Assembly: GCA_046735335.1 (NCBI GenBank)
Contig: JBKPTE010000004.1
Location: 6,406 to 70,405 of the forward strand
Origin: Acidobacteriota bacterium
Lineage (GTDB): Bacteria > Acidobacteriota > Vicinamibacteria > Vicinamibacterales > 2-12-FULL-66-21
Direction of reading: 5' to 3'
Length of the DNA stretch: 64,000 nt
The notes beneath the pieces are model-generated. The model made no database searches and was not told the DNA's origin. It was given only the letters and a program-made list of their open reading frames with translations. Position 1 is the first letter of the stretch; the number at the start of each line of letters is the position of its first letter. Made by a program: the position numbers and the translations under genes. Shown in pieces: positions 5,547-56,315 of this stretch.

Positions 5547-5675
5547 CCGGTCACCAGCTCAGCGCATGCCGCGTCGCCGGGTCTCGGCGATCGCGTCGAG
5601 GACGGACGGATCGAAACGATCGTCGCGCGCGATGGTGCCGTCGTAGTCCAAGCCAGGACGGTGAGTGTCACCGTG

Positions 5676-6233
5676 TCACCGACCTTCGGCGAACTTCAGT
5701 TTCAGCCACTCGCCGACGAGGATGGCGGCCGGGTAGAGCACCTGTTCCTCCGTCTGAGCATGTGCGGTGAGGTCCTCGACGAAGCGGCGGACATCGGGGT
5801 GGTGTTCCGCAGCGGCGGCGCGTCCGAGTTCGTCGAGCGCCCGCACGATCGCCTTGTGCTCTTCCAACATGCGCGGCATCTCGGCCTTGAGTCGGTCGGT
5901 GAGCGCGACGACCGCCCGCATATCCGGCGTCACGCGGCCTTCGGCGATCGGTCCAAGCAGCGCCAGAGGCGGCATGGCGAATTCCTCCTCGCTCACGAAA
6001 TGTTCGTGCAGGGCCGCCGCCACACGTTTTGCCGCCTCCCCGGTCTTGCCGGCGAGTTTCGTGGCTGCGGACAGCTCCGCGTGCAGCTCTTCGTGTTCGG
6101 CCTTCAGCGCCGCCGGTATCTGCAGCATGGCTACGTGCTCCTTCGGGTCGGCGTCGTGTTGTGCCGCCGCAGACGCCGGCACGCCGACAATCGCCAGCAT
6201 CAAAGCGAGTGACCAGAATTTCCGATGTGTCAC
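5676..6233 (-). CDS. secreted hemerythrin-like (HHE cation-binding) helical protein
   Basis: 185-aa ORF with a signal peptide (LALMLAIVGVPASAAAQ) and repeated H..E / HxxxE helix motifs (AEHEELHAEL, ALHEHFVSEEE, LEEHKAIV, AHAQTEEQ). Confidence 0.55.
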   Translation of the reverse strand: MTHRKFWSLALMLAIVGVPASAAAQHDADPKEHVAMLQIPAALKAEHEELHAELSAATKLAGKTGEAAKRVAAALHEHFVSEEEFAMPPLALLGPIAEGRVTPDMRAVVALTDRLKAEMPRMLEEHKAIVRALDELGRAAAAEHHPDVRRFVEDLTAHAQTEEQVLYPAAILVGEWLKLKFAEGR

Positions 6234-6277
6234 GAATGGCCTCCTGTCAGTGACGCCGGCGTCGATGGGCGTCCCAA

Positions 6278-6718
6278 CTAGCCTGCGTTCTTGATCGTGA
6301 GAACGTCGACGACCTTCGCGGCCATCTCCTGGTCGACATTCAGAAGCACGCGCAATTCGTCGGCGAATCGCTGCTCGTTCGTCGTCAACCGCCCGTCCGA
6401 CAGCATCAGATCGACGGCAACCGCGAATGCTGTGGCTCGGAGCTCCGTCGGAACGGCGGTGGCGGCTGCGCTGACGACACCTTGGATGCCCTGCTGCTTG
6501 ATGCGCTCGGCGACGGTGGTGAAGATGCCGTGCCGCGCCTCGTAACTGGAGCCGCGGAAGAGCTTCATGGCGCCGACGACATGCTCGATCTGGTTTGCCT
6601 CATGTGGCGATACCGACCCGTCGGATCGGGCGCTGGCGAGGAGGAGGCACACGAACGCTTCAGGGGGCGAAAAAGCAATGGCGCCGGCCAGCTCGGCTGG
6701 TGCGGTCTGGTTGGTCAT
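6278..6718 (-). CDS. TerB-like (tellurite-resistance TerB fold) protein
   Basis: ORF 6278..6787. Start chosen at ATG 6718 behind GGAGG. The C-terminal pattern AFAVAVDLMLSDGRLTTNEQRFADEL is typical of TerB-type domains. Confidence 0.6.
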   Translation of the reverse strand: MTNQTAPAELAGAIAFSPPEAFVCLLLASARSDGSVSPHEANQIEHVVGAMKLFRGSSYEARHGIFTTVAERIKQQGIQGVVSAAATAVPTELRATAFAVAVDLMLSDGRLTTNEQRFADELRVLLNVDQEMAAKVVDVLTIKNAG

Positions 6719-39995: not shown

Positions 39996-42900
39996 ATGAG
40001 ACTCAACCGGCTCTGGCTGCAACGGGCGAGCAGTGTCTCGGTTATCAGATGCGTTCTGGCGGCGTCTGCAGCGACCATCATCGCGTGGACCGTCGTCTCG
40101 TCTGGTACCGAAACGTCCGCGGCTGCGGATCCCGTTCTCACGGTGCCGCCTGGTTTCGAGATTGAGAAGGTGGCCGGTCCGCCGCTCGTCAATCGGCCGA
40201 TCGTCGCGGATTTCGATGACGAGGGCCGGCTCTACGTCGCGGATTCGTCCGGGTCGAATGACAAGGTCGAGAAGCAGCTCGCCGAGAAGCCGCATCGCAT
40301 CGTGAGGCTCGAAGACAAGGACGGCGACGGCCGCTTCGATTCGAGCGTCGTCTTTGCCGACAGGATGATGTTCCCGGAAGGGACGATGTGGTTCGACAGC
40401 TCACTCTACGTCGCGGCGCCGCCGAGCATCTGGAAGCTGACGGACACGGACGGCGACGGTGTCGCCGATCGTCGCGAGGAGTGGTTCCAGGGCAAGACGC
40501 TCACCAGCTGCGCCAACGATCTCCACGGACCGTACCTTGGCCCTGACGGCTGGATCTACTGGACGAAAGGCGCATTCGCGGAGCAGACCTACGAACGGCC
40601 CGGGAAGGCGCCGCTCGTCACGCGCGCGTCGCACATCTTTCGCCGGAATCCAGTGGACGGCTCGATCGAGCCAGTGATGACCGGCGGGATGGACAACCCC
40701 GTCGACGTCGCATTCACGCCAACCGGCGAGCGGATACTCACCGCGACGTTCTTCGAGCATCCACAGCTCGGGCGGCGCGACGCGCTGATTCACGCGCTGT
40801 ACGGCGGCGTGTATGGGAAGCCGCACGCCGTCATCGACGGACACAAGCGGACCGGCGACTTGTTGCCCGCGTTGACGCAGTTTGGCCCCGCGGTGCCGTC
40901 CGGTCTCACGCGCTACGCGTCGCGCGTGTTCGGCGACGGGTATCGCGACAACTTCTTTGCCGCCCTCTTCAACATGCAGAAGGTCACCCGCCACGTGCTG
41001 GAGCCGAGCGGAGCGACCTTCACGAGCCATGATTCCGACTTCGTCGTGTCGACGAGCCGCGATTTCCATCCGACGGATGTACTCGAAGATGCGGATGGCA
41101 GCCTGCTCGTCGTGGACACGGGCGGCTGGTACAAGCTGTGTTGTCCCTCCTCGCAGCTGGCCGCGCCAGACGTGCTGGGGGCGATCTATCGCGTGAGGCG
41201 CAAGGGCGCGCCTCGGATTGCGGACGCGCGCGGCCGCACCCTCGCGTGGACGACGATGACTGCGGCGGATGCCGCGAAGCTGCTCGACGAGGAGCGGCCG
41301 GCCGTTCAGAGTCGTGCGATCGCGCAACTCGCGAAGGCCGGGGAGGGTGCGACACCCGTACTCAACGACGTCCTGAAGACCTCGCCGTCCGCCGATGCCA
41401 GGCGCAATGCCGTGTGGGCGCTCACGCGGATTCGGACGACCGGGGCGCGCGATGGCCTGCGATTCGCCTTGGACGACGCTGACCAGAGCGTCCGGCTCGC
41501 GGCCCTTCATTCGATCGGGCTGCTGCGCGATGCGGACGCACTGCCGCCGCTGCTGAACGCACTGAAGTCGGGCGTCCCCGCCGTGCAGCGAGCCGCCGCG
41601 GAGGCGCTGGGACGGTTGGGGGATGCGAAAGCAGTTCCCGATCTTCTCGCGACGGCCGCCTTGCCGCTCGATCGCACGCTGGAGCATTCGGTCAACTATG
41701 CGCTGATTGAGATTGACAATCCCGCCGCAACACGAGCCGCCGCGCAGGCGCCCTCGTCACGGACGCGGCGCGCGGCGTTGATCGCCCTCGATCAGATGGA
41801 CGGCGGCGACTTGACCCCGTCCGCCGTCGTGCCCTTGCTCGATTCGGCCGATCCGCTGCTGCGCGAGACGGCGTGGTGGATCGTTGGCCATCGTTCGGAG
41901 TGGGGCAATGCGCTCGCCGATTTCTTCCAGACGCATCTGGCGGCGAACGATCTCAGCTCCGCCGCCCGCGACGATTTGCAGCACAAGCTCGTCGAATTCG
42001 CGGACAACGCGGCGATTCAGGACCTGCTGGCCAGGATGGCGGAACGGCCGGCGACGAGGGCCGATCGCGAGGTCGCGCTCCGCGCGATGGCCAGGACGCG
42101 TGCGAAGGAGCTGCCGTCCTCGTGGATTCCGTCGTTGATAGAGGCGCTTTCCAGCCGCGATTTCGACGTGGCGCGCCTTGCGCTCTCGGTCGCTCGCGCC
42201 GCTCCTCCGTCGAAGGACGCGGTTCTCGCGGTGGAGACGACACTGCTGCGCGTGGCACGGAATGCCGCGTTGCCGCTCGACGTTCGCATCGACGCGCTCG
42301 GCACGGTGCACGGCGGCCTGGCGAGTGTCGATCCCGATGTCTTCGATCTGCTGCGGACCGGCCTCGAGCCCTCGCAGCCGGTCACCGTTCGCGCAGCCGC
42401 TGTCGCCGTTCTCGAGAAGGCACGCCTGGCGCCCGAGCAGCTGCTCGCCTTGACGCCCTCCCTCGAGCGCGCCGGTCCGCTGGAGCTGCCGCGCATTCTG
42501 CCCGCGTTCGATCGCGGGAGCGGCGAGGCGCTCGGGTTCGAGATGCTGGCCGCGCTCGAGCGATCGAAGGGACGATCGAGCCTTCGTGCCGACGTCCTTC
42601 GTCCTCGGCTGGCGAAGTACCCCGAGTCGGTGCGGAAGAGAGGGGAGATCCTCCTCGCCTCGCTGAATGTCGATTCCGAGAAGCAGGCGAAGCGGCTCGA
42701 TGACATTCTCGCGGCGAGCGGGGGAGGCGACATTCGCAGAGGGCAGGCGGTGTTCAACAGCCCGAAGGTGGCCTGCATCTCCTGCCACAGCATCGGGTAT
42801 CTGGGAGGGAAGATCGGACCAGACCTCACGCGAATCGGGCAGGTGCGCAGCGAGCGGGATCTCCTCGAGGCGATCCTCTTCCCGAGCGCCAGCTTCGCCC

Positions 42901-43169
42901 GCGGCTACGAGCCGGTCGTCGTCACGAAGCAATCGGGCGAGACGCTCACCGGCCTGCTGCGCAGCGAGCTGTCGGACACGATCGTGCTGGTCTCCGGCGC
43001 AGGCGCGGAGACTCGCATCCCGCGCGGCGACATCACCGACATGCAACCCGGCACGGTGTCGATCATGCCGGCGGGGCTTGCGGATCAATTGTCGCGGCAA
43101 GAGCTCGCGGATCTGCTCGCATTCCTGAAGGCGACGCAGCCGGGCGCGCTCCCGCCGCGACTGCCCTGA
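39996..43169 (+). CDS. PVC-type haem-binding protein: membrane-bound dehydrogenase-like beta-propeller, HEAT repeats and C-terminal cytochrome c
   Basis: 1057-aa ORF. It has an N-terminal FEIEKVAGPPLVNRPIVADFDDEGRLYVADS propeller, central HEAT-like repeats, and a C-terminal CISCH haem c motif. Confidence 0.85.
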   Translation: MRLNRLWLQRASSVSVIRCVLAASAATIIAWTVVSSGTETSAAADPVLTVPPGFEIEKVAGPPLVNRPIVADFDDEGRLYVADSSGSNDKVEKQLAEKPHRIVRLEDKDGDGRFDSSVVFADRMMFPEGTMWFDSSLYVAAPPSIWKLTDTDGDGVADRREEWFQGKTLTSCANDLHGPYLGPDGWIYWTKGAFAEQTYERPGKAPLVTRASHIFRRNPVDGSIEPVMTGGMDNPVDVAFTPTGERILTATFFEHPQLGRRDALIHALYGGVYGKPHAVIDGHKRTGDLLPALTQFGPAVPSGLTRYASRVFGDGYRDNFFAALFNMQKVTRHVLEPSGATFTSHDSDFVVSTSRDFHPTDVLEDADGSLLVVDTGGWYKLCCPSSQLAAPDVLGAIYRVRRKGAPRIADARGRTLAWTTMTAADAAKLLDEERPAVQSRAIAQLAKAGEGATPVLNDVLKTSPSADARRNAVWALTRIRTTGARDGLRFALDDADQSVRLAALHSIGLLRDADALPPLLNALKSGVPAVQRAAAEALGRLGDAKAVPDLLATAALPLDRTLEHSVNYALIEIDNPAATRAAAQAPSSRTRRAALIALDQMDGGDLTPSAVVPLLDSADPLLRETAWWIVGHRSEWGNALADFFQTHLAANDLSSAARDDLQHKLVEFADNAAIQDLLARMAERPATRADREVALRAMARTRAKELPSSWIPSLIEALSSRDFDVARLALSVARAAPPSKDAVLAVETTLLRVARNAALPLDVRIDALGTVHGGLASVDPDVFDLLRTGLEPSQPVTVRAAAVAVLEKARLAPEQLLALTPSLERAGPLELPRILPAFDRGSGEALGFEMLAALERSKGRSSLRADVLRPRLAKYPESVRKRGEILLASLNVDSEKQAKRLDDILAASGGGDIRRGQAVFNSPKVACISCHSIGYLGGKIGPDLTRIGQVRSERDLLEAILFPSASFARGYEPVVVTKQSGETLTGLLRSELSDTIVLVSGAGAETRIPRGDITDMQPGTVSIMPAGLADQLSRQELADLLAFLKATQPGALPPRLP

Positions 43170-44268: not shown

Positions 44269-47064
44269 TCAGCGGCTCGCAGCGGCGCGGCTCGAGGACA
44301 TCGATCGGAACGGAGCGCGTTCCCATGCTCGTCCTATTGGGCGCCGGCAGGGCGACTTTACCCTAATCCGCGCGTCAATGACGCGGCAGCCTCCGCCAGG
44401 CGTCAACGCAATCACCGGATTCAGATCGAGCTCCACGATCTCCGGCACACGTGTGGCGAGGCACGACATCCGCAGCAGAGCGTCGCGGAGTGCATCGACG
44501 TCGGCGGGCGGCCGTCCGCGATGGCCCGTGAGCAGCGGGTAGCCTCGAATCTCGCGGAGAAGATCGTCGGCGTCCCGGTCGGTCAGCGGGGCGACACGAA
44601 AACGTACGTCGCCGAGCAGTTCGACGTTGATCCCGCCGATGCCGAACGCGACCAGCGGACCGAACAGCGGATCGTGCGCGATGCCGAGCAGCGTTTCGAC
44701 ACCTCCGCAGATCATCGGTTGGATCAGCACGCCTTCGACCGCGTCCTCGCCGGCCGCCTCCGCCGCGCGGGCGACGATCTGAGTGAAGGCCGTTCGGACC
44801 TCGTCGGCGGACGCGAGATTCAGGCGAACGACACCCAACTCGGTCTTGTGCGCCACCTTTGCGGACGCGAGCTTCGCGGCGACGGGGAACCCAATCACCG
44901 ATGCGAAGGCGACCGCCTCGTCGGCCGTTCGCGCCAGCTTGTGAATGGCCACCGGGAAGCCGAATGCGCTCAGCACACCCCAGATGTCGTGATCGTTGAG
45001 CCACGTCTCGCCCCGCGCCAGCGCGCGTCGACAGATCGTGCGCGCATCGCCGGCGTGCTGACCGTCGAACGCCCACGACAGGCCGGCCGGCTGCGATTTC
45101 CACGCAGCGTAGGCCGCGACCTTCCCGAGCGTCCGCGCCGCGTTCTCGGGAAAGGCGTATGTCGGGATGGTTTCGCCCCAGACGCGCAGCGGCTGCGGGT
45201 CTGTCGAATCGGACATGAGGCATGCGAGCACCGGCTTGTCCAGCACGCCGCGGCTGCGCGCAGACGCGATGCCCGCGCGAATGCCGGCGACGATGTTTTC
45301 CGATGTCGACGCATCGATCGGCGTGAAGACGACGATCAGGGCGTCCACGCCCGGCGCCCTCAGCACGGTTTCGATCGCCTGGCGGTATTCCTCCGGTCCG
45401 GCCGACGCCACGAGATCGACGGGGTTCCCGACGCTCGCGGTTGCGGGCAACGCCGCCTGCAGCTCTGTCCTCACGTCGGGACCGAGGTCGGCAATCTGAA
45501 GCCCGGCGGCGTCGCAGGCGTCGACGGCGAGAATGCCGGGGCCGCCCGCGTTCGTCACGATGGCGACCCGCCGTCCGGCGGGCAACGGTTGCGCGTCGAG
45601 GCACACGGCGACATCGAACAGCTCGTCCATCGTGTCGGCGCGAATGACGCCGGTCTGCTGGAACAGCGCGTCGACTGCGGCGTCCCTCGCCGCCAGCGCG
45701 GCGGTGTGGCTTCCTGCTGCGCGCGATCCGGCCTGCGTGCGGCCGGCCTTCAACGCGACGATCGGCTTCTCCCGTCCGATGCGCCGCGCCAGCCGGGCGA
45801 AGCGCCGCGGATTTCCAAACGATTCGAGGTAGAGCAGGATCACGCGGGTCCGTGGATCCGATTCCCAGTATTCAAGGAGATCGTTGCTGGAGACGTCCGC
45901 CTTGTTGCCGACGCTGACGAACCCCGACAGCCCGATCTGACGATGGGCCGCGAGCCGGAGAATCGCGATCCCGAGTGCGCCGCTCTGCGATGACAACGCT
46001 ATCGATCCGGCGGGAGGAGAGAGCGGCGAGAACGACGCATTCATCCGGACGGCCGGGTCCATGTTGACGATCCCCATGCAGTTCGGACCGACCATGCGCA
46101 TGCCGTAGCCGCGCACGCGGTCGGTGAGCGCGGCCTGGAGCGCGACGCCGTCGGCGCCCGTCTCGGCAAATCCCGCGGTGATGACGACGAGCGATCGAAC
46201 GCCGGCCGCGGCGCAATCGTCCACGACCGTGAGTACCGACGCCGCGGGTACCGCGACGATAGCAAGGTCGACGGCGGACGGCAGATCGCGGGCTGAATGG
46301 ACCGCCGGCAGACCTGACAGCTCGCGGGCGTTCGGATGAACCGGGACGATCTGTCCGTTGTATCCGCCCGCCTGCAGCGCCCGCAGGACGCGCGAGCCGA
46401 TCTTCGACGGATTGCGCGAAGCGCCGATCACCGCGATGGACCGCGGTTCGAGCAGCGGCCGGATGGATTCGGCGGACGCGCGCCCGCAGCGCCGCTCGGC
46501 GGCGGGGATGCCTTCAGTGGAAGGCAACAGCGTGAGCTGAAGCTCGAGGACGCCCGCTCCGGTCGCAGAGCGGATCTCGAATCCCGCTTCGCGGAAGACC
46601 TCGCGAGCCCGGGAGTCACCGGAAGCCATCGACGCGTGCAGCGTGAGGAAGCCCGCCTGTGCCGCGAGGTTGGCAACGCGCTCGAGCAGCAGCGTTGCGA
46701 TCCCCGTACGCTCGAGACGCTCGTCAACCGCGACGACGACCTGCGCGGCCGCGCCGGTCAGCGCCAGGTACGACGCGACCCCGGCGATCTCATCCCCGCT
46801 GGCGAGAGAGCGGATCGCAACGAGCGTCTGAGTGTCGCGCGCGTTCACGGGCCGCGCCTCGCGATCGATCTGCGAGGGGCCTGAACCGTCCCCCGCAAGA
46901 AAGCGCCGGCATCGCGATTCGAGCGAGCGATCGCGGATGAAACGCGCAACGCCTGGCCCGTCCTTCGTCGTCGATGGTCTGATGGTGACGCGGCCGCCGT
47001 CGGGCAGAATCAGAGGCGACGAGTCCCGGGAGGTCACCGCCGGGGATTGGGGTACGGTGTGCAT
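44269..47064 (-). CDS. GNAT acetyltransferase fused to ADP-forming acyl-CoA synthetase (CoA-binding, ligase-CoA and ATP-grasp domains)
   Basis: ORF 44269..47568. The start at ATG 47064 is chosen because upstream codons overlap the divergent activator gene. It has an N-terminal GNAT fold, then IAVIGASRNPSKIG, MVGPNCMG, the catalytic-His loop AAGSHTAALA, and a C-terminal ATP-grasp. Confidence 0.85.
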   Translation of the reverse strand: MHTVPQSPAVTSRDSSPLILPDGGRVTIRPSTTKDGPGVARFIRDRSLESRCRRFLAGDGSGPSQIDREARPVNARDTQTLVAIRSLASGDEIAGVASYLALTGAAAQVVVAVDERLERTGIATLLLERVANLAAQAGFLTLHASMASGDSRAREVFREAGFEIRSATGAGVLELQLTLLPSTEGIPAAERRCGRASAESIRPLLEPRSIAVIGASRNPSKIGSRVLRALQAGGYNGQIVPVHPNARELSGLPAVHSARDLPSAVDLAIVAVPAASVLTVVDDCAAAGVRSLVVITAGFAETGADGVALQAALTDRVRGYGMRMVGPNCMGIVNMDPAVRMNASFSPLSPPAGSIALSSQSGALGIAILRLAAHRQIGLSGFVSVGNKADVSSNDLLEYWESDPRTRVILLYLESFGNPRRFARLARRIGREKPIVALKAGRTQAGSRAAGSHTAALAARDAAVDALFQQTGVIRADTMDELFDVAVCLDAQPLPAGRRVAIVTNAGGPGILAVDACDAAGLQIADLGPDVRTELQAALPATASVGNPVDLVASAGPEEYRQAIETVLRAPGVDALIVVFTPIDASTSENIVAGIRAGIASARSRGVLDKPVLACLMSDSTDPQPLRVWGETIPTYAFPENAARTLGKVAAYAAWKSQPAGLSWAFDGQHAGDARTICRRALARGETWLNDHDIWGVLSAFGFPVAIHKLARTADEAVAFASVIGFPVAAKLASAKVAHKTELGVVRLNLASADEVRTAFTQIVARAAEAAGEDAVEGVLIQPMICGGVETLLGIAHDPLFGPLVAFGIGGINVELLGDVRFRVAPLTDRDADDLLREIRGYPLLTGHRGRPPADVDALRDALLRMSCLATRVPEIVELDLNPVIALTPGGGCRVIDARIRVKSPCRRPIGRAWERAPFRSMSSSRAAASR

Positions 47065-47077
47065 GTATGGCGCGGTC

Positions 47078-47093
47078 AGCAGAAGACGTGCCA
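47078..47093 (-). promoter_or_regulatory. sigma-54 promoter match TGGCAC-gtctt-CTGCt
   Basis: Read on the minus strand. GG-N10-GC spacing is exact. The -12 GC lies 14 nt before ATG 47064. Confidence 0.55.
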
Positions 47094-47219: not shown

Positions 47220-47235
47220 TGGCACGCGGGTTGCC
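47220..47235 (+). promoter_or_regulatory. sigma-54 promoter match TGGCAC-gcggg-TTGCc
   Basis: Near-perfect consensus, 80 nt upstream of ATG 47314 of the sigma-54 activator gene. Confidence 0.65.
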
Positions 47236-47313: not shown

Positions 47314-48365
<1,052 letters not shown>

Positions 48366-48369
<4 letters not shown>

Positions 48370-49292
48370 TCGTCGACCCGCGGGCGATCGCGGTCCCAGG
48401 ACTGCAGGACCGAGATATAAGCGTTGCGATCGAATCGAGTCCGGTCCCCGCCCAGAGCTGCACAGCCTTTGATGCCGGCAAGCGACTGGCAGCCGTGCGC
48501 CTCGCACCAGTGTTCGAGCTGCGTCCGCAGGTACGTCAGCCGCGACGGACCGTGGCGGAGCAGCGTCGAGGCGACCTGGACGGCGTCCGCGCCAGCCATC
48601 ACGGCCTTGACGACATCAATCGGTTCGTGCACGCCGCCGCTCAGCGCCAGCCACATGCGGACGCGGCCGGAGAGGATGGCGATTGCATGAAGGCGGAGCA
48701 GGAGATCGGACGAATTCGACAACTGCACCCGGACGGTCGTGCCGCGGATCTCGGGATCGATGTCCGCCTGATAGAAGCGATTGAAGACGACGAGGCCGTT
48801 GACGCCCATGCGCTCGAGCCGCATCGCCAGGTTCGGCACCGACGAATAGAACGGCGAGAGCTTGACCGCGACCGGAATCGAGACCGATTCCTTCACGACC
48901 GCCACGATGTCGATCAGGCGCTGTTCGATGGCCTGTCCGCTCTCCGTCGGGCTGGTGGCGACGTGGTAGAAGTTCAGCTCGAGCGCGTTCGCGCCGGCGC
49001 GCTCGAGCGCGCGTGCGTACTGCAGCCAGCCTTCAGGCGTCGTCCCGTTGAGAGACGCGATAATCGGCACTCCGACGTGTCGCTTGACCCGAAGGAGATG
49101 CTCGACGTACTGGCCCGGAGACGGGGCCGCGCTCCGGAGAATCTGCTCTTCGAACAACGAGTGCATCACGATCGCGGCGGCGCCGGCATCCTCGAGCCTC
49201 TGGACCATGTCCAGGTCGGCGCTCATGGGCGACGCGCCGCAGACGATCGGATGCGCCAACTCGAGACCGAGATACGTTGTCTGGAGGTCCAT
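48366..49292 (-). CDS. dihydroorotate dehydrogenase-like FMN TIM-barrel protein
   Basis: ORF 48366..50036 from ATG 49292 (308 aa). It shows [15 protein letters not shown] and [26 protein letters not shown], typical of the class-1 DHOD/DPD fold. Confidence 0.8.
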
Positions 49293-49294
49293 GT

Positions 49295-49915
49295 TCACCT
49301 GACGGTCGGCGTCACCGGACGATCTTCGAAGAGATAACCCAGCCGCACTCCGACACTCGTGATGGAATCGGTGGACCCGTTGCGGTGCACGAGCACGACG
49401 GAGGCTTCGGGGCGGATGCTGATGTTCCGATGCCTGATCAGATCGACGCCCGCGCTGAACCGCCACGCCGGATCGGTGAACGTCCGCATGCTGGTGGCTC
49501 CTCCTGCCGGTTCGAGCATGCGCATGCGGTAGAAGTCGGATACGTGCGCCGTCCGCGTGTCGATGCTCGCGCGATACAGGCCGAACGCCGCGCCGACGTA
49601 GGGCGTCGTCCGACGCCTGGCGATTACGTTGACGAGCGCGCCGACGTCGGCGCCGACGCCGTTCGTGTTGCTGCCGCGCGCGAACCAGCCGCCGCGGGCT
49701 TCGAGCGTCACCCATCGGGTAATGCTCCATCCCGCCATGCCGGCGACCACCGGAGCGGTTTCCGACGATGCGAAGGCGGTACCGATTGAGCCGCCCAGTT
49801 CCGTTCCGCGTGCCGCGAAATTCGATTGGTCTGGCGTCTGCGCGACGAGCGGCGCGGCCGTCAGGCCCGTCATCAGCGCGACGGATGCGATGCGACGACC
49901 GAGACCATTGTTCAT
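49295..49915 (-). CDS. small outer-membrane beta-barrel protein
   Basis: A signal peptide is followed by alternating-hydrophobicity strands and a C-terminal ...VGVRLGYLF barrel-like motif. It sits 2 nt upstream of the DHOD-like gene, so the two are a likely operon. Confidence 0.7.
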   Translation of the reverse strand: MNNGLGRRIASVALMTGLTAAPLVAQTPDQSNFAARGTELGGSIGTAFASSETAPVVAGMAGWSITRWVTLEARGGWFARGSNTNGVGADVGALVNVIARRRTTPYVGAAFGLYRASIDTRTAHVSDFYRMRMLEPAGGATSMRTFTDPAWRFSAGVDLIRHRNISIRPEASVVLVHRNGSTDSITSVGVRLGYLFEDRPVTPTVR

Positions 49916-49936
49916 AGGGCCCTCCGCCGTTCACGC

Positions 49937-49952
49937 AGCAGACCCCGTACCA
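49937..49952 (-). promoter_or_regulatory. sigma-54 promoter match TGGTAC-ggggt-CTGCt
   Basis: Read on the minus strand. GG-N10-GC spacing is exact. It lies 22 nt before ATG 49915, with GGAGGG in between. Confidence 0.5.
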
Positions 49953-50003
49953 ACGGCGCAGGGCAGATCCGTCTCGGGTCGCGCGACGTATCAGCGGCGA
50001 TCG

Positions 50004-50015
50004 CCGGATTTCCGG
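50004..50015. promoter_or_regulatory. palindrome CCGGA-TT-TCCGG between divergent sigma-54 promoters (candidate UAS)
   Basis: Read directly. It is flanked by the palindrome GGCGATCGCC (49996-50005). Confidence 0.3.
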
Positions 50016-50044
50016 CAGCGGCGCCTCGCAAAGCAAGGCACGCG

Positions 50045-50060
50045 TGGCACGCTCCGTGCT
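50045..50060 (+). promoter_or_regulatory. sigma-54 promoter match TGGCAC-gctcc-GTGCt
   Basis: GG-N10-GC spacing is exact. It lies about 110 nt upstream of ATG 50172. Confidence 0.5.
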
Positions 50061-50171
50061 CGGCTACATCACGAAGACTCCCAAGACAAGGCTGTGCGCC
50101 GGCTCGACTCGCGTGGAGGGCGTTGCGGAGCGCGTTCTGGCCGTCCACGTCGGGCAAGATAGTGAGAGGGA

Positions 50172-51044
50172 ATGCCCATGCTTCAGCCGCCGGCCGCGCT
50201 CGCGCCTGAACAGGACGCGGGACCCCGCAGCATTGCGCCCGCAGTCGTCTTCGACAAGGTGTCGTTCGCCTTCGACGATCACGTCGTCCTGTCGGATGTC
50301 AGCTTTGCGATTCCTGATGGCAGCATGAAGGTCCTCCTCGGCGCCAGCGGCGCAGGGAAGTCGATCGTTCTCAAGCTGATTCTCGGGCTGCTGCGGCCGG
50401 ACAACGGAGCGATTTGGGTGAAAGGGCAGAGAATCGACACGCTGCCCGAGCGCGATCTCATTCGGGCGAGAGCCGACATCGGAATGCTGTTCCAGGGGAG
50501 CGCGTTGTTCGACTCGCTCACGGTCGCGGAGAACGTCGGCTACAGACTGTACGAGGAAACGAGGATGCCGGCGGACCAGGTGCGCCGACGCGTCGAAGAG
50601 GTGCTGGCGTTCGTCGGGCTGAGCGAGCACATCGACCGAATGCCCGCTGAGCTGTCCGGAGGCCAACGGCGGCGGGTCGCGATTGCGCGCGCGATGATCG
50701 GCAGACCCAGCCTGCTGCTGTTCGACGACCCGACCACCGGACTCGATCCGATTATCGCGACCACCGTGAACAACGAAATCGTCAAGCTGCGCGACCTGGA
50801 ACACGCCACGTCGATCGTCGTCACTCACCAGATCCGCGACGCCTACTACGTGGCCACGCACGAGGCCGTGCGGCACAACGGCACCGTGATCATTCGTCCG
50901 ATTGGCGAGGAACGCGCACGGCAGGTGGGCTTCATGGTCCTGCACGACGCGCGCATCTACTTCGAAGGAACAGCGGGAGAACTTCTTGCGTCCAGCGACA
51001 GCTACTTGCGCCGTTTCCTCTTCAGGACGCTGCCGCCCTGGTAG
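50172..51044 (+). CDS. ABC transporter ATP-binding protein (MlaF-like), with no permease gene adjacent
   Basis: Walker A GASGAGKS, signature LSGGQRRR and Walker B LLLFDDPTTGLD are present. The 3' end overlaps the convergent PFOR gene by 23 nt. Confidence 0.85.
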   Translation: MPMLQPPAALAPEQDAGPRSIAPAVVFDKVSFAFDDHVVLSDVSFAIPDGSMKVLLGASGAGKSIVLKLILGLLRPDNGAIWVKGQRIDTLPERDLIRARADIGMLFQGSALFDSLTVAENVGYRLYEETRMPADQVRRRVEEVLAFVGLSEHIDRMPAELSGGQRRRVAIARAMIGRPSLLLFDDPTTGLDPIIATTVNNEIVKLRDLEHATSIVVTHQIRDAYYVATHEAVRHNGTVIIRPIGEERARQVGFMVLHDARIYFEGTAGELLASSDSYLRRFLFRTLPPW

Positions 51045-54000
51045 GGGCCAGGAGATTCTCTCCCTGACGCGTAACGGGCGAGCCGCTCGCACAGCCCCCG
51101 GTCCGACCTTCGCCGCGCGAAGGTCCCGGCCAACGTTCACTCATGTTCTTGTAGAGGGACCATCGCTGATGAATGTCCTGCTGCGCGAGCGCGAGCAGCC
51201 GCCGCGCGTCTTCGGGCCTGGTCTGCGCGAGCATCCTGTAACGGGTCTCGTTGTAGGCGTAAGCCTCCAGCGGAATGCTCGGCGCCTGCGAATCCAGGAC
51301 GAACTCGGGAAGCTGCCGACCCGCTGCGGCGGGTCTGTACCGGTAGAGCGGCCAGTGCCCGCAATCGGCCGCGAGCTTCTGCTGGCGCATGCCCAGACGC
51401 ATGTCGATCCCGTGGGCGATGCAATGGCCGTAGGCGATGATCAGTGAAGGTCCGTCGTACGCCTCGGCCTCGACGAACGCATCCAGTGTCTGCTGGGCCG
51501 ACGCGCCCATCGCGATCTGGGCCACGTATACGTTCCCGTACGCGATGGCCATCAAACCCAGATCCTTCTTGCGGCTCTGCTTGCCGGCAGCCGCAAACTT
51601 CGCGACGCCCGCGCGCGGCGTGGCTTTCGACGCCTGGCCCCCGGTGTTCGAGTAGACCTCGGTGTCGAGCACCAGGATGTTGACGTTCCGTCCGGAGGCG
51701 ATCACGTGGTCGAGGCCGCCGTACCCGATGTCGTACGCCCAGCCGTCGCCGCCAACAATCCAGACGCTCTTGCGTACGAAGTGCGACGCAAGCGTGCGGA
51801 GCCGGCGGGCGCGGGGATCGTCGATTCCGTCGAGGGCGCGTTCGAGTGCCGTCACCCGCGTGCGTTGCGCATCCACCTCGTCGCTCGTCGCCTGCGATGC
51901 GTCAATGATCTCCGCGGCGAGGCCTGGCTCGAGATCGGGCGCAAGATCGCGAAGGAGCCGGTCGGCCTCTTCGCGATGGGCGTCCAGCGAGAGTCGGTAA
52001 CCCAGACCGAACTCTGCATTGTCCTCGAACAGAGAATTGGCCCATGCGGGTCCGCGCCCCTCCGCATTGATCGACCACGGCGTCGTCGGCAGGTTGCCGC
52101 CATAGATCGAGGAACAGCCGGTCGCATTCGCGACCAGCAGGCGGTCGCCGAAGAGTTGCGTGAGGAGGCGCAGGTACGGCGTCTCGCCGCAGCCGGCACA
52201 CGCTCCCGAGTACTCGAACAGCGGCGTGAGGTATTGAACTCCCCGCACGAGCGTTGCGTCGACGCGACCCGGCGCGCTGGCCGGCAGCGTCTCGAAAAAG
52301 GCAAGATTGCGGCGCTCGCGCTCCAGCAATGGCGACTTCGCTTCCATCTCGATTGCGCGGGCGGCTTCCGGTTCGCCGCTCCGGACCGGGCATACCTCCA
52401 CACAGAGCTCGCAGCCGGTGCAGTCTTCGACGGCGACCTGCAACGTGAACCGGCGATTGGGAAATCCTCGACCAACCAACGGCGCCGATGCGAACCCGTG
52501 GGGTGAGCGGGCCAGGAACGAGTCCTCGTACTGGCGAGCACGAATCGCCGCGTGCGGACACACCATCACGCAGTTGCCACACTGGATGCAGATCTCGGGT
52601 CTCCACACCGGCACCGTATCCGAGATGTTCCGCTTCTCCCAGCGCGAAGTGCCGGATGGGTACGTTCCGTCTGCCGGCAGGGCACTGACGGGAAGATCGT
52701 CGCCGCGCCCGGCGGCCATCACCGCAGTGACCTCCTTGACGAACGCGGGTGCGTCTTCGGAGACCAGGGCGGCGGCTTCGCGCGTGCTGCTCACCGCTGC
52801 GCCGAGTTGAACGGCGTGCAGGTTCTCGAGCGCACGATCGATGGCGGCAAAGTTCTTGTCGACGAGGTCGCCGCCCTTCCGGCCGTACGTCGCGACGACC
52901 GCTTCCTTGATTCGCGTGATCGCGTCGGCCCGAGGCAGCACGCCCGAAATGGCAAAGAAGCAGGTCTGCATGACCGTGTTGATCCGCCCCGGCATGCCGG
53001 CCTCGAGCGCCACACGGTCGGCATCGATGGCATACAGGCGTATGTGCTTGCGGATCAGCGTGTCCTGAACGGAAGCGGGCAGCTCGTCCCAGATCTCGTC
53101 GGGCCCGAACACGGTGTTGAGCAGGAACACCGCGCCATCGACAGCCTCCCGCAGCATGTCGATCCGATCGACGAATTGAAACTGATGGCACGCGATGAAT
53201 TGCGCGCGCTGGACCAGGTATGTGGACCGAATCGGGCGCGGCCCGAAGCGCAAGTGCGACGTCGTTCGCGACCCGGATTTCTTGGAGTCGTAGACGAAGA
53301 AGCCCTGGGCGTACGCGGCCGTGTCCTCGCCGATGATCTTGATTGAGTTCTTGTTGGCTCCTACCGTCCCGTCCGACCCGAGGCCGTAGAAAATGCAGCC
53401 CACGACGTCCGGGCTCTCGATCACGAACTCCGGGTCGTACTCGAGGCTGGTGTGCGACAGATCATCACGGATGCCGACGGTGAAGTGGTTGGCCGGCGCT
53501 GGCGACGCCAGGTTGTCGAAGACGGCCTTGACCATGGCGGGCGTGAATTCCTTCGACCCGAGGCCGTATCGGCCGCCGACGATGCGGGGCAGCGCCGGGC
53601 GGCGGTTCGCGGCGACGGCCTCGGCGAAGGCTGCCACGACATCCAGGTACAGCGGCTCGCCGGACGCGCCCGGCTCCTTCGTTCGATCGAGCACCGCGAT
53701 CGTATTCGCCGTCGGCGGAATGGCGTCGACCAAATCAGCGGCCGAGAAAGGCCTGAACAGGTGCACCTGCACGAGACCGACCTTCTCGCCGCGCTCGTTC
53801 AGGTACGCGACGGTTTCGCGGGCGGTTTCGACGCCCGAGCCCATGAGCACGACCACGCGCTCCGCGTCAGGCGCGCCCGCGTAATCGAACAATTTGTACT
53901 GACGGCCGGTCAGCCCCGCGAAGCGGTCCATCGTCCGCTGCAGCTCCGCCGGCACCGCCGCATAGAACGTGTTCACCGTCTCGCGCGCCTGGAAGTACAC

Positions 54001-54672
54001 GTCCGGGTTCTGCGCCACGCCGCGGACGAACGGATGCTCCGGGTCCAGCGCGCGCCGGCGGTGCGCGAACACCAGCTCGTCATCGATCATCGCCTTCACC
54101 GCGTCGTCGGCGAGGATCTCTATCTTGCTGACTTCGTGAGACGTCCTGAACCCGTCGAAGAAGTGAACGAATGGAATGCGGGACGCGAGTGTCGCGCTGT
54201 GGGCGACGAGGGCCAGGTCGTGCGCCTCCTGCACCGAGCTCGAACAGAGCATGCCCCATCCGGTCATCCGCGCGGCCATCACGTCCGAGTGATCTCCGAA
54301 GATCGAAAGCGCCTGCGTAGCAAGGGCGCGCGCGGCCACATGGAAGACCGTCGGCGTGAGCTCCCCGGCGATCTTGAACATGTTCGGGATCATGAGGAGC
54401 AGGCCCTGCGATGCTGTGAACGTCGTCGTCAGCGCGCCGGTCTGCAGCGCGCCATGGATCGCGCCAGCGGCCCCTCCTTCGCTCTGCATCTCGACGACGT
54501 GCGGCACGCTGCCCCAGATGTTCTTGCGTCCTTCGGCCGCCCATTGGTCCGCCAGCTCGCCCATCGTGGAGGAGGGGGTGATCGGGTAGATCGCGCAGAT
54601 CTCATTCACGCGGTATGCGATCGAGGCTGCCGCCTCATTGCCGTCGAGCGTCTTGACGTGCGCGGGTGCCAT
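51022..54672 (-). CDS. nifJ: pyruvate:ferredoxin (flavodoxin) oxidoreductase, single-polypeptide type
   Basis: ORF 51022..55056 from ATG 54672 (1216 aa). It starts MAPAHVKTLDGNEAAASIAYRVNEICAIYPITPSS, carries ferredoxin motifs CIQCGNCVMVCP and CTGCELCVEVCP, and has the TPP motif GGDGWAYDIG. Confidence 0.9.
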   Translation of the reverse strand: MAPAHVKTLDGNEAAASIAYRVNEICAIYPITPSSTMGELADQWAAEGRKNIWGSVPHVVEMQSEGGAAGAIHGALQTGALTTTFTASQGLLLMIPNMFKIAGELTPTVFHVAARALATQALSIFGDHSDVMAARMTGWGMLCSSSVQEAHDLALVAHSATLASRIPFVHFFDGFRTSHEVSKIEILADDAVKAMIDDELVFAHRRRALDPEHPFVRGVAQNPDVYFQARETVNTFYAAVPAELQRTMDRFAGLTGRQYKLFDYAGAPDAERVVVLMGSGVETARETVAYLNERGEKVGLVQVHLFRPFSAADLVDAIPPTANTIAVLDRTKEPGASGEPLYLDVVAAFAEAVAANRRPALPRIVGGRYGLGSKEFTPAMVKAVFDNLASPAPANHFTVGIRDDLSHTSLEYDPEFVIESPDVVGCIFYGLGSDGTVGANKNSIKIIGEDTAAYAQGFFVYDSKKSGSRTTSHLRFGPRPIRSTYLVQRAQFIACHQFQFVDRIDMLREAVDGAVFLLNTVFGPDEIWDELPASVQDTLIRKHIRLYAIDADRVALEAGMPGRINTVMQTCFFAISGVLPRADAITRIKEAVVATYGRKGGDLVDKNFAAIDRALENLHAVQLGAAVSSTREAAALVSEDAPAFVKEVTAVMAAGRGDDLPVSALPADGTYPSGTSRWEKRNISDTVPVWRPEICIQCGNCVMVCPHAAIRARQYEDSFLARSPHGFASAPLVGRGFPNRRFTLQVAVEDCTGCELCVEVCPVRSGEPEAARAIEMEAKSPLLERERRNLAFFETLPASAPGRVDATLVRGVQYLTPLFEYSGACAGCGETPYLRLLTQLFGDRLLVANATGCSSIYGGNLPTTPWSINAEGRGPAWANSLFEDNAEFGLGYRLSLDAHREEADRLLRDLAPDLEPGLAAEIIDASQATSDEVDAQRTRVTALERALDGIDDPRARRLRTLASHFVRKSVWIVGGDGWAYDIGYGGLDHVIASGRNVNILVLDTEVYSNTGGQASKATPRAGVAKFAAAGKQSRKKDLGLMAIAYGNVYVAQIAMGASAQQTLDAFVEAEAYDGPSLIIAYGHCIAHGIDMRLGMRQQKLAADCGHWPLYRYRPAAAGRQLPEFVLDSQAPSIPLEAYAYNETRYRMLAQTRPEDARRLLALAQQDIHQRWSLYKNMSERWPGPSRGEGRTGGCASGSPVTRQGENLLAPTRAAAS

Positions 54673-54683
54673 GTGAGTGCCTG

Positions 54684-56270
54684 CTATGTCGCTGCGACGT
54701 CGACCGGTTCGGGCATCATCGCGATCGCACCGCACGGGCACTGGTCGAAGCAGATCGCGCAGCCCGTACACCTCGTCAAGTCGTACTCGTAGCGGAGACC
54801 GGGCCCGAGCTTCAGCACCGCGTGCTCGGGACACGCCGAGTAACAGCCGTCGCATTCGAAACAGTTTCCGCACGAGAGACAGCGCTGTGCTTCGAACCGC
54901 GCCGCCTCGGGATCGAGCCCATCGACCACTTCGTCGAACGTCCGCCGCCGTCGCGGCAGGTCGATGGTCCCTTGTGCGCGCCTCTTGGCGTCCGCCTGAT
55001 ACCAGAGGCGAAGCGTCTCGAAGGATGCGATCTCGTGCTTGCCGGCCCGTACCCATGCCCGATCGCGGAGGAACGCGTCGATGAATCGGGCGGCCTTCTT
55101 CCCGTGTCCGATCGCCGTCGTAACCGTGCGCTCGTACGGCACCATGTCGCCGCCCGCGAAGACCCCACGGCAGCCCGTCTGCATGTCGGGCCCCACGACC
55201 ACCGTCCCGTCCTTCTTGAATTGCAGTCCGGGGACCTGTCTCAGAAATGCGGTGTCCGTATCCTGCCCCAACGCGAGGATGAGAGAGTCGACCTCGAGCT
55301 CTTCGAATTCGCCGGTCGGCTGCGGATACCGGTTCTCGTCGAGCCGCATGATCTCGACGCGCACGCGCGAGCCGGTGATGTTCTTGATCGTGCGGAGCCA
55401 GTGAATCTTCACGCCTTCGTCGAGCGCGTCATCCGCTTCGAAGGCATGCGCCGGCATCTCGGCGCGGGTGCGCCGGTAGATGATGACGGGTTCGGCCCCG
55501 AGGCGTCGTGCCGTCCGCGCAGCATCCATCGCCGTGTTGCCGCCGCCATAGATGGCGACGCGCCGGCCGATTCGCGGCGATTCGGTTCCGCGCTCCACTT
55601 GTTCCAGGAACTGAAGTGCGTCGAAGATCTTCCCCGCATCCTGTGCGGGAATCTCCTGGCGCCTGCTGAGATGCGCGCCGACCGCCAGAAACACCGCGTC
55701 GAATCGGCCATCGGCCTTCTCTCGAGCGAGATCGGTCACCTTGTGATTCAGCTCGAACCGCACCCCCGTCGCCTTGATGCGGTCGATTTCGCGATCGAGC
55801 ACCTCTCGCGGAAGTCGATATTTCGGAATCCCGAAATGCATCATGCCGCCGGCTACGGGCCCGGCGTCGCGAACGACGACCTCGTGGCCGCGCAACGTGA
55901 GATGCCAGGCGGCCGAAAGACCGCTCGGGCCCGCGCCGACGACGAGAACCCGCCTGCCTGACGGAGGCGCGCTGCACTCAATCGTCCAGCCGTGCGCCAG
56001 GGCCAAATCGCCGAGGAAGCGTTCGACCGCATGGATTCCGACGGCATCGTCGACTTTGGTGCGATTGCAGGCGTCTTCGCACGGGTGATAACAGACGCGG
56101 CCGTGCACGGCTGGCAGAGGGTTGTCACGAACGATGACTTCCCACGCCTGGCGGTATCGTCCGCCCTGCGCTTCCGCCAGCCATGCCTGCACGTTTTCGC
56201 CCGCAGGGCAGGCGTCGTTGCACGGAGGCAGGCGATCGATGTACAGCGGGCGCAGCGTGCGGACTGGCAT
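54684..56270 (-). CDS. GltD-like NAD(P)H:FAD oxidoreductase with C-terminal 2x[4Fe-4S] ferredoxin domain
   Basis: It has an N-terminal Cys cluster (CNDACPAGE...CYHPCEDACNR), Rossmann motifs VVGAGPSGLSAA and IYGGGNTAMDAA, and the C-terminal motifs CLSCGNCFECDGCYSACP and CTGCAICFDQCPCGAI. It sits 11 nt upstream of PFOR. Confidence 0.85.
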   Translation of the reverse strand: MPVRTLRPLYIDRLPPCNDACPAGENVQAWLAEAQGGRYRQAWEVIVRDNPLPAVHGRVCYHPCEDACNRTKVDDAVGIHAVERFLGDLALAHGWTIECSAPPSGRRVLVVGAGPSGLSAAWHLTLRGHEVVVRDAGPVAGGMMHFGIPKYRLPREVLDREIDRIKATGVRFELNHKVTDLAREKADGRFDAVFLAVGAHLSRRQEIPAQDAGKIFDALQFLEQVERGTESPRIGRRVAIYGGGNTAMDAARTARRLGAEPVIIYRRTRAEMPAHAFEADDALDEGVKIHWLRTIKNITGSRVRVEIMRLDENRYPQPTGEFEELEVDSLILALGQDTDTAFLRQVPGLQFKKDGTVVVGPDMQTGCRGVFAGGDMVPYERTVTTAIGHGKKAARFIDAFLRDRAWVRAGKHEIASFETLRLWYQADAKRRAQGTIDLPRRRRTFDEVVDGLDPEAARFEAQRCLSCGNCFECDGCYSACPEHAVLKLGPGLRYEYDLTRCTGCAICFDQCPCGAIAMMPEPVDVAAT

Positions 56271-56299: not shown

Positions 56300-56315
56300 A
56301 GCAACGAGCACGCCA
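56300..56315 (-). promoter_or_regulatory. sigma-54 promoter match TGGCGT-gctcg-TTGCt
   Basis: Read on the minus strand. GG-N10-GC spacing is exact. It lies 30 nt before ATG 56270. Confidence 0.55.

Follow-up and report, generated by a model that had tools for sequence, protein, structure and literature searches.

Introduction

The electron acceptor usually assigned to pyruvate:ferredoxin/flavodoxin oxidoreductase (PFOR) is free ferredoxin or flavodoxin. In the pyruvate:NADP+ oxidoreductase (PNO) of Euglena and Cryptosporidium, PFOR is joined to an NADPH flavoprotein and the enzyme converts pyruvate, CoA and NADP+ to acetyl-CoA, CO2 and NADPH. PNO is a single fused chain and its reductase is of the cytochrome-P450-reductase type (flavodoxin-like FMN plus FNR-like FAD), unrelated to GltD/NfnB and to dihydroorotate dehydrogenase (DHOD). 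In Nfn, the structure shows the NfnA subunit to be PyrK-like. Here we analyse a stretch of 64,000 nucleotides from an Acidobacteriota bacterium (contig JBKPTE010000004.1, positions 6,406 to 70,405 of the forward strand; the whole stretch is called the window), in which a single-chain PFOR is encoded directly downstream of a GltD-like flavoprotein and close to a DHOD-like FMN protein.

Comparable gene groups have been described. In propionibacteria, PFOR (nifJ1) is flanked by genes for a GltD-like and a DHOD-like protein, all of them co-transcribed and co-regulated, and an Nfn-like confurcating complex was postulated in which the DHOD-like protein was likened to NfnA (McCubbin et al. 2020, Genes 11:1115, PMC7650540). 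The idea of such a trio is thus not new and its core was published in 2020. In Synechocystis PCC 6803, nifJ is transcribed as a single unit with sll0743 and sll0744, the latter carrying the annotation 'dihydroorotate dehydrogenase (fumarate)', and the unit is induced in the dark under microoxic conditions (PMC11368403). NfnB homologues that have no upstream nfnA, no long N-terminus and no Arg333 are plain, non-bifurcating ferredoxin:NADP+ oxidoreductases (PMC12221290, JBC 2025). A literature search found no assay of a bacterial GltD-linked PFOR, and nothing on the function of PRK07565, the family of the DHOD-like protein, or of sll0744.

PFOR is linked to GltD-like and DHOD-like genes across phyla

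The PFOR of the window matches TIGR02176 over residues 7-1179 of 1216 (1759 bits, cut-off 911) and has the Pfam domains POR_N, PFOR_II, POR, EKR, Fer4 (2x[4Fe-4S]) and TPP_enzyme_C in one chain. The last ~35 residues fall outside the TIGR02176 model; the chain stops after the TPP domain, with no flavodoxin or FNR-type domain in a Pfam scan of PFOR. The stop codon of the GltD-like gene (TAG, 54686-54684) is followed, after exactly 11 nt, by the ATG of PFOR at 54672. A preliminary description, made from the sequence of the window, had given this spacing and had seen in the GltD-like protein an N-terminal Fe-S cysteine cluster, two Rossmann motifs and a C-terminal 2x[4Fe-4S] domain; spacing and domains are both confirmed. 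It had also placed PFOR between the two halves of an electron-transfer module. This is correct for the GltD-like gene, which adjoins PFOR, but the DHOD-like gene starts only 1.7 kb after the PFOR stop codon, with the genes for an ABC-transporter ATPase (on the opposite strand) and for an outer-membrane protein (OMP) in between (Table 1).

The co-occurrence of the three genes, named in the preliminary description as the way to check its idea, was examined in two scans, and the linkage was found in both. A genome scan seeded with an alignment of the DHOD-like family returned 80 loci (loci are numbered with the prefix L), four of which end at a contig edge, leaving 76 informative ones from Acidobacteriota, Nitrospira, Binatia, Myxococcales, Planctomycetota (Fontivita pretiosa), Betaproteobacteria, Gemmatimonadaceae and others. 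In 68 of the 76, a single-chain PFOR is encoded directly upstream of the DHOD-like gene on the same strand. A GltD-like gene of the PRK12771 type is absent upstream of the PFORs of these loci; L049 and L075 have a GltD match of 35% identity at this position. As DHOD-like genes are mostly paired with PFOR in the absence of a GltD-like gene, the role of the DHOD-like protein cannot depend on the GltD-like protein.

The second scan, of metagenomes, was seeded with an alignment of the GltD-like family and yielded 80 loci with 60-77% identity, 74 of them informative. PFOR is directly downstream of the GltD-like gene in 69 of these 74 (93%). Sequence past a complete PFOR is available for 44 of these loci: the next gene is DHOD-like in 30 (68%), forming the full trio, and nothing conserved is found at this place in the remaining 14. 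In L001 and L002, whose GltD-like proteins are 79-81% identical to the one of the window, the genes for the GltD-like protein, PFOR and the DHOD-like protein (DHO_dh) adjoin each other in the same orientation. When open reading frames (ORFs) within 4 kb of the PFOR/DHOD-like pairs were clustered, no third conserved neighbour (ferredoxin, flavodoxin or other reductase) emerged; the commonest clusters are a GNAT domain fused to an acyl-CoA synthetase (GNAT-ACS), Usp and alcohol-dehydrogenase-like proteins, none of which is present in more than eight loci.

Two further arrangements were seen. In Geothrix rubra (L075), an ORF of up to 953 residues directly upstream of the PFOR/DHOD-like pair (3476-6337, plus strand) encodes a PyrK/NfnA-like protein fused to a GltD/NfnB-like protein, with an extra N-terminal region; this fusion is a different way to attach an NADP-linked flavoprotein to PFOR. 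In L145, L151, L152 and L161, no single-chain PFOR comes after the PRK12771-type GltD-like gene, and a weak PFOR-like match (28-33% identity) lies upstream; if this match is another 2-oxoacid oxidoreductase, the flavoprotein may serve further members of that enzyme family.

The GltD-like protein is an StnC-like relative of NfnB

The GltD-like protein consists of Fer4_20 (residues 15-94), Pyr_redox_2 (107-390) and Fer4_7 (469-515) and matches NF009410/PRK12771 over model positions 36-565 of 566 (729 bits, cut-off 516); its relatives in L083 and L107 reach 736-742 bits. The two Rossmann motifs are VVGAGPSGLSAA and IYGGGNTAMDAA, and the C-terminus has two CxxCxxCxxxCP motifs (C470-C480 and C501-C511). 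Further cysteines are C17, C21, C60, C64, C68, C464 and C467; judged by cysteine count, the protein may hold up to four [4Fe-4S] clusters in addition to FAD.

The closest solved structures are StnC-like chains (9bov_A, 1e-92; 8oh5_C, 3e-80) and 9n5u_A, deposited as 'NfnA' (2e-91), followed by Pyrococcus NfnI-L (5jca_L, 3e-75) and Thermotoga NfnB (4ylf_B, 4e-70); GltD (1e-46) and dihydropyrimidine dehydrogenase (DPD, 8e-28) are more distant. Residues 440-468 (RRRRTFDEV...EAQRCLSCG) match the N-terminal segment of NfnB/NfnI-L and residues 15-402 match the remainder, whereas the alignment with StnC is colinear over residues 12-474 and includes the Fe-S segment that follows the flavin domains. The protein is thus StnC-like, with a topology that is circularly permuted in comparison to NfnB.

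The protein retains YRRT(R) (Y265-R269), the motif lining the NADP(H) site of NfnB. Arg333 (PfNfnI-B numbering) is replaced by His275, and this histidine is invariant in 13 relatives. The alignment with 5jca_L starts at residue 15 of the query and residue 50 of the chain; the extended N-terminus of NfnB is missing. There is no nfnA gene (PyrK-like, FAD plus [2Fe-2S]) directly upstream of the GltD-like gene and no PyrK-like gene in the region. In Fer4_20 plus Pyr_redox_2, in the absence of nfnA and in the absence of Arg333 the protein agrees with the reductases of the CA_C0764 type, and it has an extra ferredoxin domain. Given its homology to NfnB and to these ferredoxin:NADP+ reductases, together with the conserved YRRT, a link to NADP is plausible. 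A canonical Nfn was considered and is ruled out: there is no NfnA, Arg333 is a histidine and the DHOD-like protein is of the PyrD type, not of the PyrK type. Automatic annotation labels homologues 'formate dehydrogenase (NADP+) beta subunit', and 'formate dehydrogenase beta' and 'glutamate synthase beta' are common wrong names for members of the family.

The DHOD-like protein is an FMN barrel without the catalytic cysteine

The DHOD-like protein has a PF01180 domain and matches NF005741/PRK07565 with 355.5 bits (cut-off 303), in two stretches, because it lacks a variable insert of ~25 residues. This insert of ~25-30 residues follows the conserved MHSLFEEQ strand (alignment columns 61-93); it is present in most close relatives and missing from the protein of the window and a subgroup of members with 306-310 residues. 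The preliminary description had left room for a genuine PyrD; the protein is not one, as the best PyrD models score far below their cut-offs (NF005574, 88 bits, cut-off 269; TIGR01037, 82 bits, cut-off 270). The PreA model NF006183 scores 61 bits (cut-off 335).

In the alignment with Lactococcus lactis PyrD-B (1ep1_A), FMN-binding elements are retained (the Lys of VKLSP, the Asn of FNR, and GGV/AGA), but the catalytic loop ELNISCPN of 1ep1_A corresponds to ELNFYHVA. The residue aligned with the catalytic Cys is variable (H/Y/F/E) among ~100 members of the family. Neither Pfam nor the family alignment detects an Fe-S domain or a conserved cysteine, and, since no cysteine is conserved, an Fe-S cluster is absent from the protein. 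The AlphaFold2 model (pLDDT 87.8) is a barrel of the DHOD/DPD type: the best Foldseek match is domain IV of pig DPD (E 9e-15, TM ~0.7), and class 1A/1B DHODs are matched with TM 0.73-0.76, at identities of 15-20%. At E-values of 1e-30 or better the family has 719 representatives at 50% clustering, and no Rosetta-stone fusion to PFOR or to a GltD-like protein is found in the best 150 of these (170-500 residues). Homologues are auto-annotated as 'dihydroorotate dehydrogenase (fumarate)', a routine mis-annotation of this PFOR partner.

PFOR and the DHOD-like protein of the window belong to different clades

DHOD-like proteins split into two clades, one from loci with a PFOR/DHOD-like pair and one from loci with a GltD-like/PFOR/DHOD-like triple: members of the pair clade share 65% identity on average and those of the triple clade 56%, against 47% from one clade to the other, and both clades pass NF005741 with 434-464 bits. 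A neighbour-joining tree of 96 PFORs likewise places the GltD-associated PFORs cleanly apart from the pair-type PFORs. The matching splits indicate that PFOR and the DHOD-like protein have co-diversified, which argues for a functional and probably physical link.

Judged by its protein sequences, the window is a chimera of these two types: its PFOR is of the type with GltD and its DHOD-like protein is of the type without GltD. PFOR groups with the GltD-associated clade in the tree, next to L083, and the DHOD-like protein has a mean identity of 57% to the pair clade and 44% to the triple clade. Three adjoining genes of the same orientation with PFOR in the centre are found in L001, L002 and L083, each with a DHOD-like gene of the GltD clade directly after PFOR; the window has no such gene at this place. 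The nearest relatives of the DHOD-like gene of the window are detached from PFOR too (L003-L005, L007, L008 and L015), and for L003, L004, L007, L008 and L015 there is no match to PFOR within up to 10 kb upstream. The surroundings are partly shared: the sigma-54 activator and the GNAT-ACS are also present in L003, L005 and L008 and the ABC ATPase in L003-L005, while the order PFOR, DHOD-like, GNAT-ACS recurs in L006, L011, L012, L016 and L017. We infer that the lineage lost the DHOD-like gene belonging to its GltD-like/PFOR operon, with the convergent ABC gene now in its place, and kept a remnant of a pair-type DHOD-like/ACS cluster nearby.

Neighbouring genes and sigma-54 sites

The genes and sites of the region are listed in Table 1.

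Table 1. Genes and putative sigma-54 sites around PFOR, in positions of the window
Feature	Position	Strand	Basis or location
GNAT domain fused to ADP-forming acyl-CoA synthetase	44269..47064	-	GNAT, CoA_binding_2, Succ_CoA_lig, ATP-grasp_5
Sigma-54 enhancer-binding protein, 351 aa, PspF-like architecture	47314..48369	+	Sigma54_activat, AAA_lid_14, HTH_8
DHOD-like FMN TIM-barrel protein, 308 aa, PRK07565 family	49292..48366	-	PF01180, NF005741
OMP beta-barrel protein with signal peptide, 206 aa	49915..49295	-	PF13505
Weak sigma-54-like site, 2 mismatches	49937..49952	-	ends 21 nt upstream of OMP ATG
Orphan ABC-transporter ATPase	50172..51044	+	PF00005
Single-chain PFOR, 1216 aa	54672..51022	-	TIGR02176, Pfam
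GltD/NfnB-like Fe-S flavoprotein, 528 aa, PRK12771 family	56270..54684	-	Pfam and NCBIfam matches
Sigma-54 -24/-12-like site TGGCGTGCTCGTTGCT, 2 mismatches	56300..56315	-	ends 29 nt upstream of GltD-like ATG

The ABC-ATPase gene converges on PFOR, overlaps its 3' end by 23 nt and takes the position at which near relatives have the DHOD-like gene; it also comes after PFOR in the close relative L005. No permease gene adjoins it. The start of the DHOD-like gene, which stops at 48366, was set at the ATG at 49292 by alignment with relatives. This ATG is 2 nt past the stop of the OMP gene, and, because of this distance, the two genes probably share one operon. The OMP protein itself is probably not part of the redox system and its gene merely intervenes. 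An OMP homologue is also found upstream of the DHOD-like gene in L003. The betaproteobacterial locus L012 has a regular cluster of PFOR, DHOD-like and ACS genes and, 5 kb downstream of it (15349-16875, plus strand), an OMP homologue (53% identity) followed by another DHOD-like copy (47% identity); the OMP/DHOD-like pairing of the window is thus not unique. No second PFOR, DHOD-like or GltD-like gene was found in the window. Upstream of the GltD-like gene, at a distance of ~480 nt, is a gene for a beta-lactamase-fold protein. Elsewhere in the window (39996-43169, plus strand), and unrelated to the finding, a protein of 1057 residues with DUF7133, HEAT repeats and a C-terminal cytochrome c domain is encoded.

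The preliminary description had assigned the DHOD-like gene to a putative sigma-54 operon. The OMP/DHOD-like operon is preceded by a site with two mismatches, which is a weak, putative one; the activator gene is convergent with the DHOD-like gene and thus outside this operon. In a scan with the consensus TGGCAC-N5-TTGCW, sites with up to two mismatches are not above chance in the window (29 found, 20.8 expected). The only observations that carry weight are the local clustering of sites with one mismatch and the conservation upstream of the GltD-like gene. The window has three sites with one mismatch, all within 47.08-50.06 kb (47078-47093, minus strand; 47220-47235, plus strand; 50045-50060, plus strand), each of them intergenic and pointing into the genes for GNAT-ACS, the activator and the ABC ATPase, respectively. 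The five closest relatives (L001, L002, L083, L084 and L085) have an equivalent of the site that precedes the GltD-like gene, and distant ones do not (8 of 77 loci in total), so that sigma-54 control of GltD-like/PFOR is plausible in this sub-lineage. Together, this site and those around the activator gene may be a small local sigma-54 regulon. The activator begins directly with the AAA+ domain and has no sensory or receiver domain, like PspF, and the ORF cannot be extended upstream; its activity must thus be controlled in trans or via its expression level.

Proposed function and alternative explanations

The reading that we consider somewhat probable is centred on PFOR: PFOR and the GltD-like protein would form a hard-wired route from pyruvate to NADP+, the DHOD-like protein would be an additional FMN acceptor module, and both would be co-inherited accessories of PFOR. 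By homology, PFOR converts pyruvate and CoA to acetyl-CoA and CO2, and the electrons leave through its three [4Fe-4S] clusters. The ferredoxin domain of the GltD-like protein may dock on PFOR in place of free ferredoxin, with electrons passing from the Fer4_20-type clusters to FAD and on to NADP+, so that the two proteins would be a non-fused, non-bifurcating pyruvate:NADP+ oxidoreductase, a functional analogue of PNO built from different flavoprotein families. The FMN of the DHOD-like protein would receive electrons from one of the [4Fe-4S] clusters of its partner, in this case PFOR, in analogy to the FMN domain of DPD and to PyrD of DHOD-B, and would hand them to a further substrate. Most DHOD-like proteins would work with PFOR alone, and the one of the window is a detached copy of that clade. 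A likely sink for acetyl-CoA is the ADP-forming acyl-CoA synthetase encoded nearby, which would yield acetate and ATP, and sigma-54 may control some of the genes in the cluster. The preliminary description had proposed that the GltD-like and DHOD-like proteins together channel electrons between PFOR and NAD(P); the link to NADP is plausible by homology, but DHOD-like proteins mostly pair with PFOR where there is no GltD-like gene.

Several observations weigh against the PFOR-centred reading. The 14 of 44 GltD-like/PFOR loci that have no DHOD-like gene, and the lack of a GltD-like gene at most PFOR/DHOD-like loci, show that the two accessories need not act together. In the window, the DHOD-like gene is two genes away from PFOR, one of them on the opposite strand, and belongs to the clade without GltD, which makes a three-protein complex in this organism doubtful. 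The annotation of GltD-like homologues as formate dehydrogenase subunits indicates that this type of subunit can serve other metalloenzymes, and the GltD-like protein could also serve free ferredoxin, rather than being docked on PFOR. For complex formation, for the direction in which electrons flow and for the specificity for NADP, the reading relies on inference.

A variant that applies to the window only, and that we regard as unlikely but worth serious attention, is that the unit consists of just the GltD-like/PFOR pair: the DHOD-like protein would be uncoupled, a leftover of a former PFOR, DHOD-like, ACS cluster that is now co-operonic with the OMP gene and serves a different partner, or a second PFOR encoded at another place in the genome. 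The different clades of PFOR and DHOD-like protein (57% versus 44% mean identity for the latter), the detached DHOD-like genes in the closest relatives L003, L004, L007, L008 and L015 and the GltD-clade DHOD-like gene that follows PFOR in L001, L002 and L083 and not in the window all agree with such an uncoupling. It is countered by the position of the gene, still just 1.7 kb from PFOR and still preceding the same GNAT-ACS that follows PFOR/DHOD-like pairs elsewhere, by the absence of a second PFOR or DHOD-like gene from the 64 kb and by the tie of the family to PFOR almost everywhere else.

The model of McCubbin et al. 2020, in which the three proteins are one flavin-based bifurcating or confurcating complex, appears improbable to us. 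Low-potential electrons from pyruvate, via PFOR, and high-potential electrons at the FMN of the DHOD-like protein (for example from quinol) would converge on the FAD of the NfnB-like protein and reduce NAD(P)+; in reverse, the complex would drive pyruvate synthesis. In its favour, the GltD-like protein is a homologue of NfnB, and bifurcation in Nfn takes place at the FAD of NfnB; the full trio is clustered in 30 of 44 loci, PFOR and DHOD-like protein co-diversify within the clade with GltD, the trio is co-transcribed in Propionibacterium and Geothrix rubra has its NfnA-NfnB fusion upstream of a PFOR/DHOD-like pair. However, the analogy to Nfn is incomplete: the DHOD-like protein, a PyrD-type FMN barrel, is a poor counterpart to NfnA, which is PyrK-like, with FAD and [2Fe-2S], and the markers of NfnB are missing as well (no upstream nfnA, His for Arg333). 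Moreover, established redox potentials make the transfer of electrons from pyruvate to NADP+ strongly exergonic, with no need for coupling; most DHOD-like genes accompany PFOR alone, and the one of the window is both detached and from the PFOR-only clade. We are equally sceptical of the more far-reaching proposal of a new class of flavin-based electron-bifurcating 2-oxoacid oxidoreductases, three-component enzymes with the FAD placed between the pyruvate/acetyl-CoA couple, of very low potential, and a high-potential acceptor (for example quinone) served by the FMN. If true, this class would be widespread in soil Acidobacteriota, Actinobacteria and others, and the PFOR/DHOD-like pair, which is commoner, would be a simpler pyruvate:X oxidoreductase.

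It is very improbable that the GltD-like and DHOD-like proteins act in pyrimidine metabolism and are encoded near PFOR by coincidence, be it as a split DPD of the PreT/PreA type or, for the DHOD-like protein, as the dihydroorotate dehydrogenase of the cell. The building blocks of DPD that the preliminary description had recognised are all present (Fer4_20, the FAD/NAD(P)H domain, a 2x[4Fe-4S] ferredoxin domain and an FMN barrel), the FMN domain of pig DPD is the top Foldseek match and homologues carry the annotation as dihydroorotate dehydrogenase. Still, these parts do not make a split DPD: a PreA would itself carry the ferredoxin domain, which here belongs to the GltD-like protein, the cysteine loop N-I-S-C-P-N (N-x-S-C-P-N) reads N-F-Y-H-V-A with a variable residue in place of the cysteine, and the PyrD and PreA models reach 61-88 bits against cut-offs of 269-335, while the model of the DHOD-like family passes. 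The GltD-like protein, too, matches DPD (8e-28) far less well than StnC or NfnB (1e-92 to 1e-70). Coincidence cannot explain why, across phyla, PFOR is the direct neighbour of the DHOD-like gene in 68 of 76 loci and of the GltD-like gene in 69 of 74.

Significance

The PRK12771 GltD-like and PRK07565 DHOD-like families accompany PFOR in hundreds of genomes, with an almost obligate tie across many phyla; among these are soil lineages that are mostly aerobic, and perhaps a model cyanobacterium as well. A direct connection from PFOR to NADP through the GltD-like protein, if it exists, would give bacteria a pyruvate:NADP+ oxidoreductase of their own; this would matter for survival under hypoxia, for the supply of NADPH and for metabolic models. 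The recurrence of GNAT-ACS after PFOR/DHOD-like pairs in several phyla suggests a fermentative module that leads from pyruvate via acetyl-CoA to acetate and ATP, in bacteria that are mostly aerobic soil inhabitants. The DHOD-like partner is a clean target, being an FMN protein with a recognisable fold and a likely electron donor. The system is widespread and of moderate interest, chiefly as a well-defined target for experiments.

Comparison with known systems

Compared by its published description, the Propionibacterium trio has the same components as the window: an NfnB-like flavoprotein with an extra ferredoxin site, a central single-chain PFOR and a DHOD-like protein. The window differs in being from Acidobacteriota (Vicinamibacterales-like) and in its DHOD-like protein, which is detached by two genes and belongs to the PFOR-only clade. 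The Synechocystis nifJ unit resembles the window in the pairing of PFOR with a DHOD-like protein, where sll0744 is likened by annotation, but has no GltD-like gene.

With NfnB/NfnI-L and the CA_C0764-type reductases (5jca, 4ylf) the GltD-like protein shares the Fer4_20 domain, the Rossmann folds for FAD and NADPH and the NADPH motif YRRT, and with the CA_C0764-type class of ferredoxin:NADP+ oxidoreductases it further shares the absence of an nfnA partner and of Arg333 (PMC12221290). Unlike these proteins, it has a C-terminal 2x[4Fe-4S] ferredoxin domain and its gene is almost always directly upstream of PFOR; unlike in NfnB, where it is at the start of the protein, the RCLxC segment stands after the flavin domains (residues 440-468). 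The best solved relatives in sequence are StnC of the Stn transhydrogenase and the Mo-less 'molybdopterin oxidoreductase' chains (8oh5_C, 9bov_A), but chains of the StnC type have ~1170 residues, with an N-terminal extension and a formate-dehydrogenase-like C-terminal half, and their partners are HydBC-like and not PFOR.

DPD (the mammalian enzyme and E. coli PreT/PreA) has the same set of cofactor domains, the same fold of the FMN barrel and the same logic of electron transfer from [4Fe-4S] to FMN. In contrast to DPD, it is the GltD-like protein that carries the ferredoxin domain, the FMN protein has none and lacks the catalytic Cys and one pyrimidine-binding Asn, identity is just 15-20%, and a PFOR of 1216 residues is encoded between the two 'halves'. 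Finally, PFOR of the window is not fused to a domain of the NADPH-cytochrome-P450-reductase type, as it is in PNO, but the net reaction proposed for the GltD-like/PFOR pair is the same as that of PNO.

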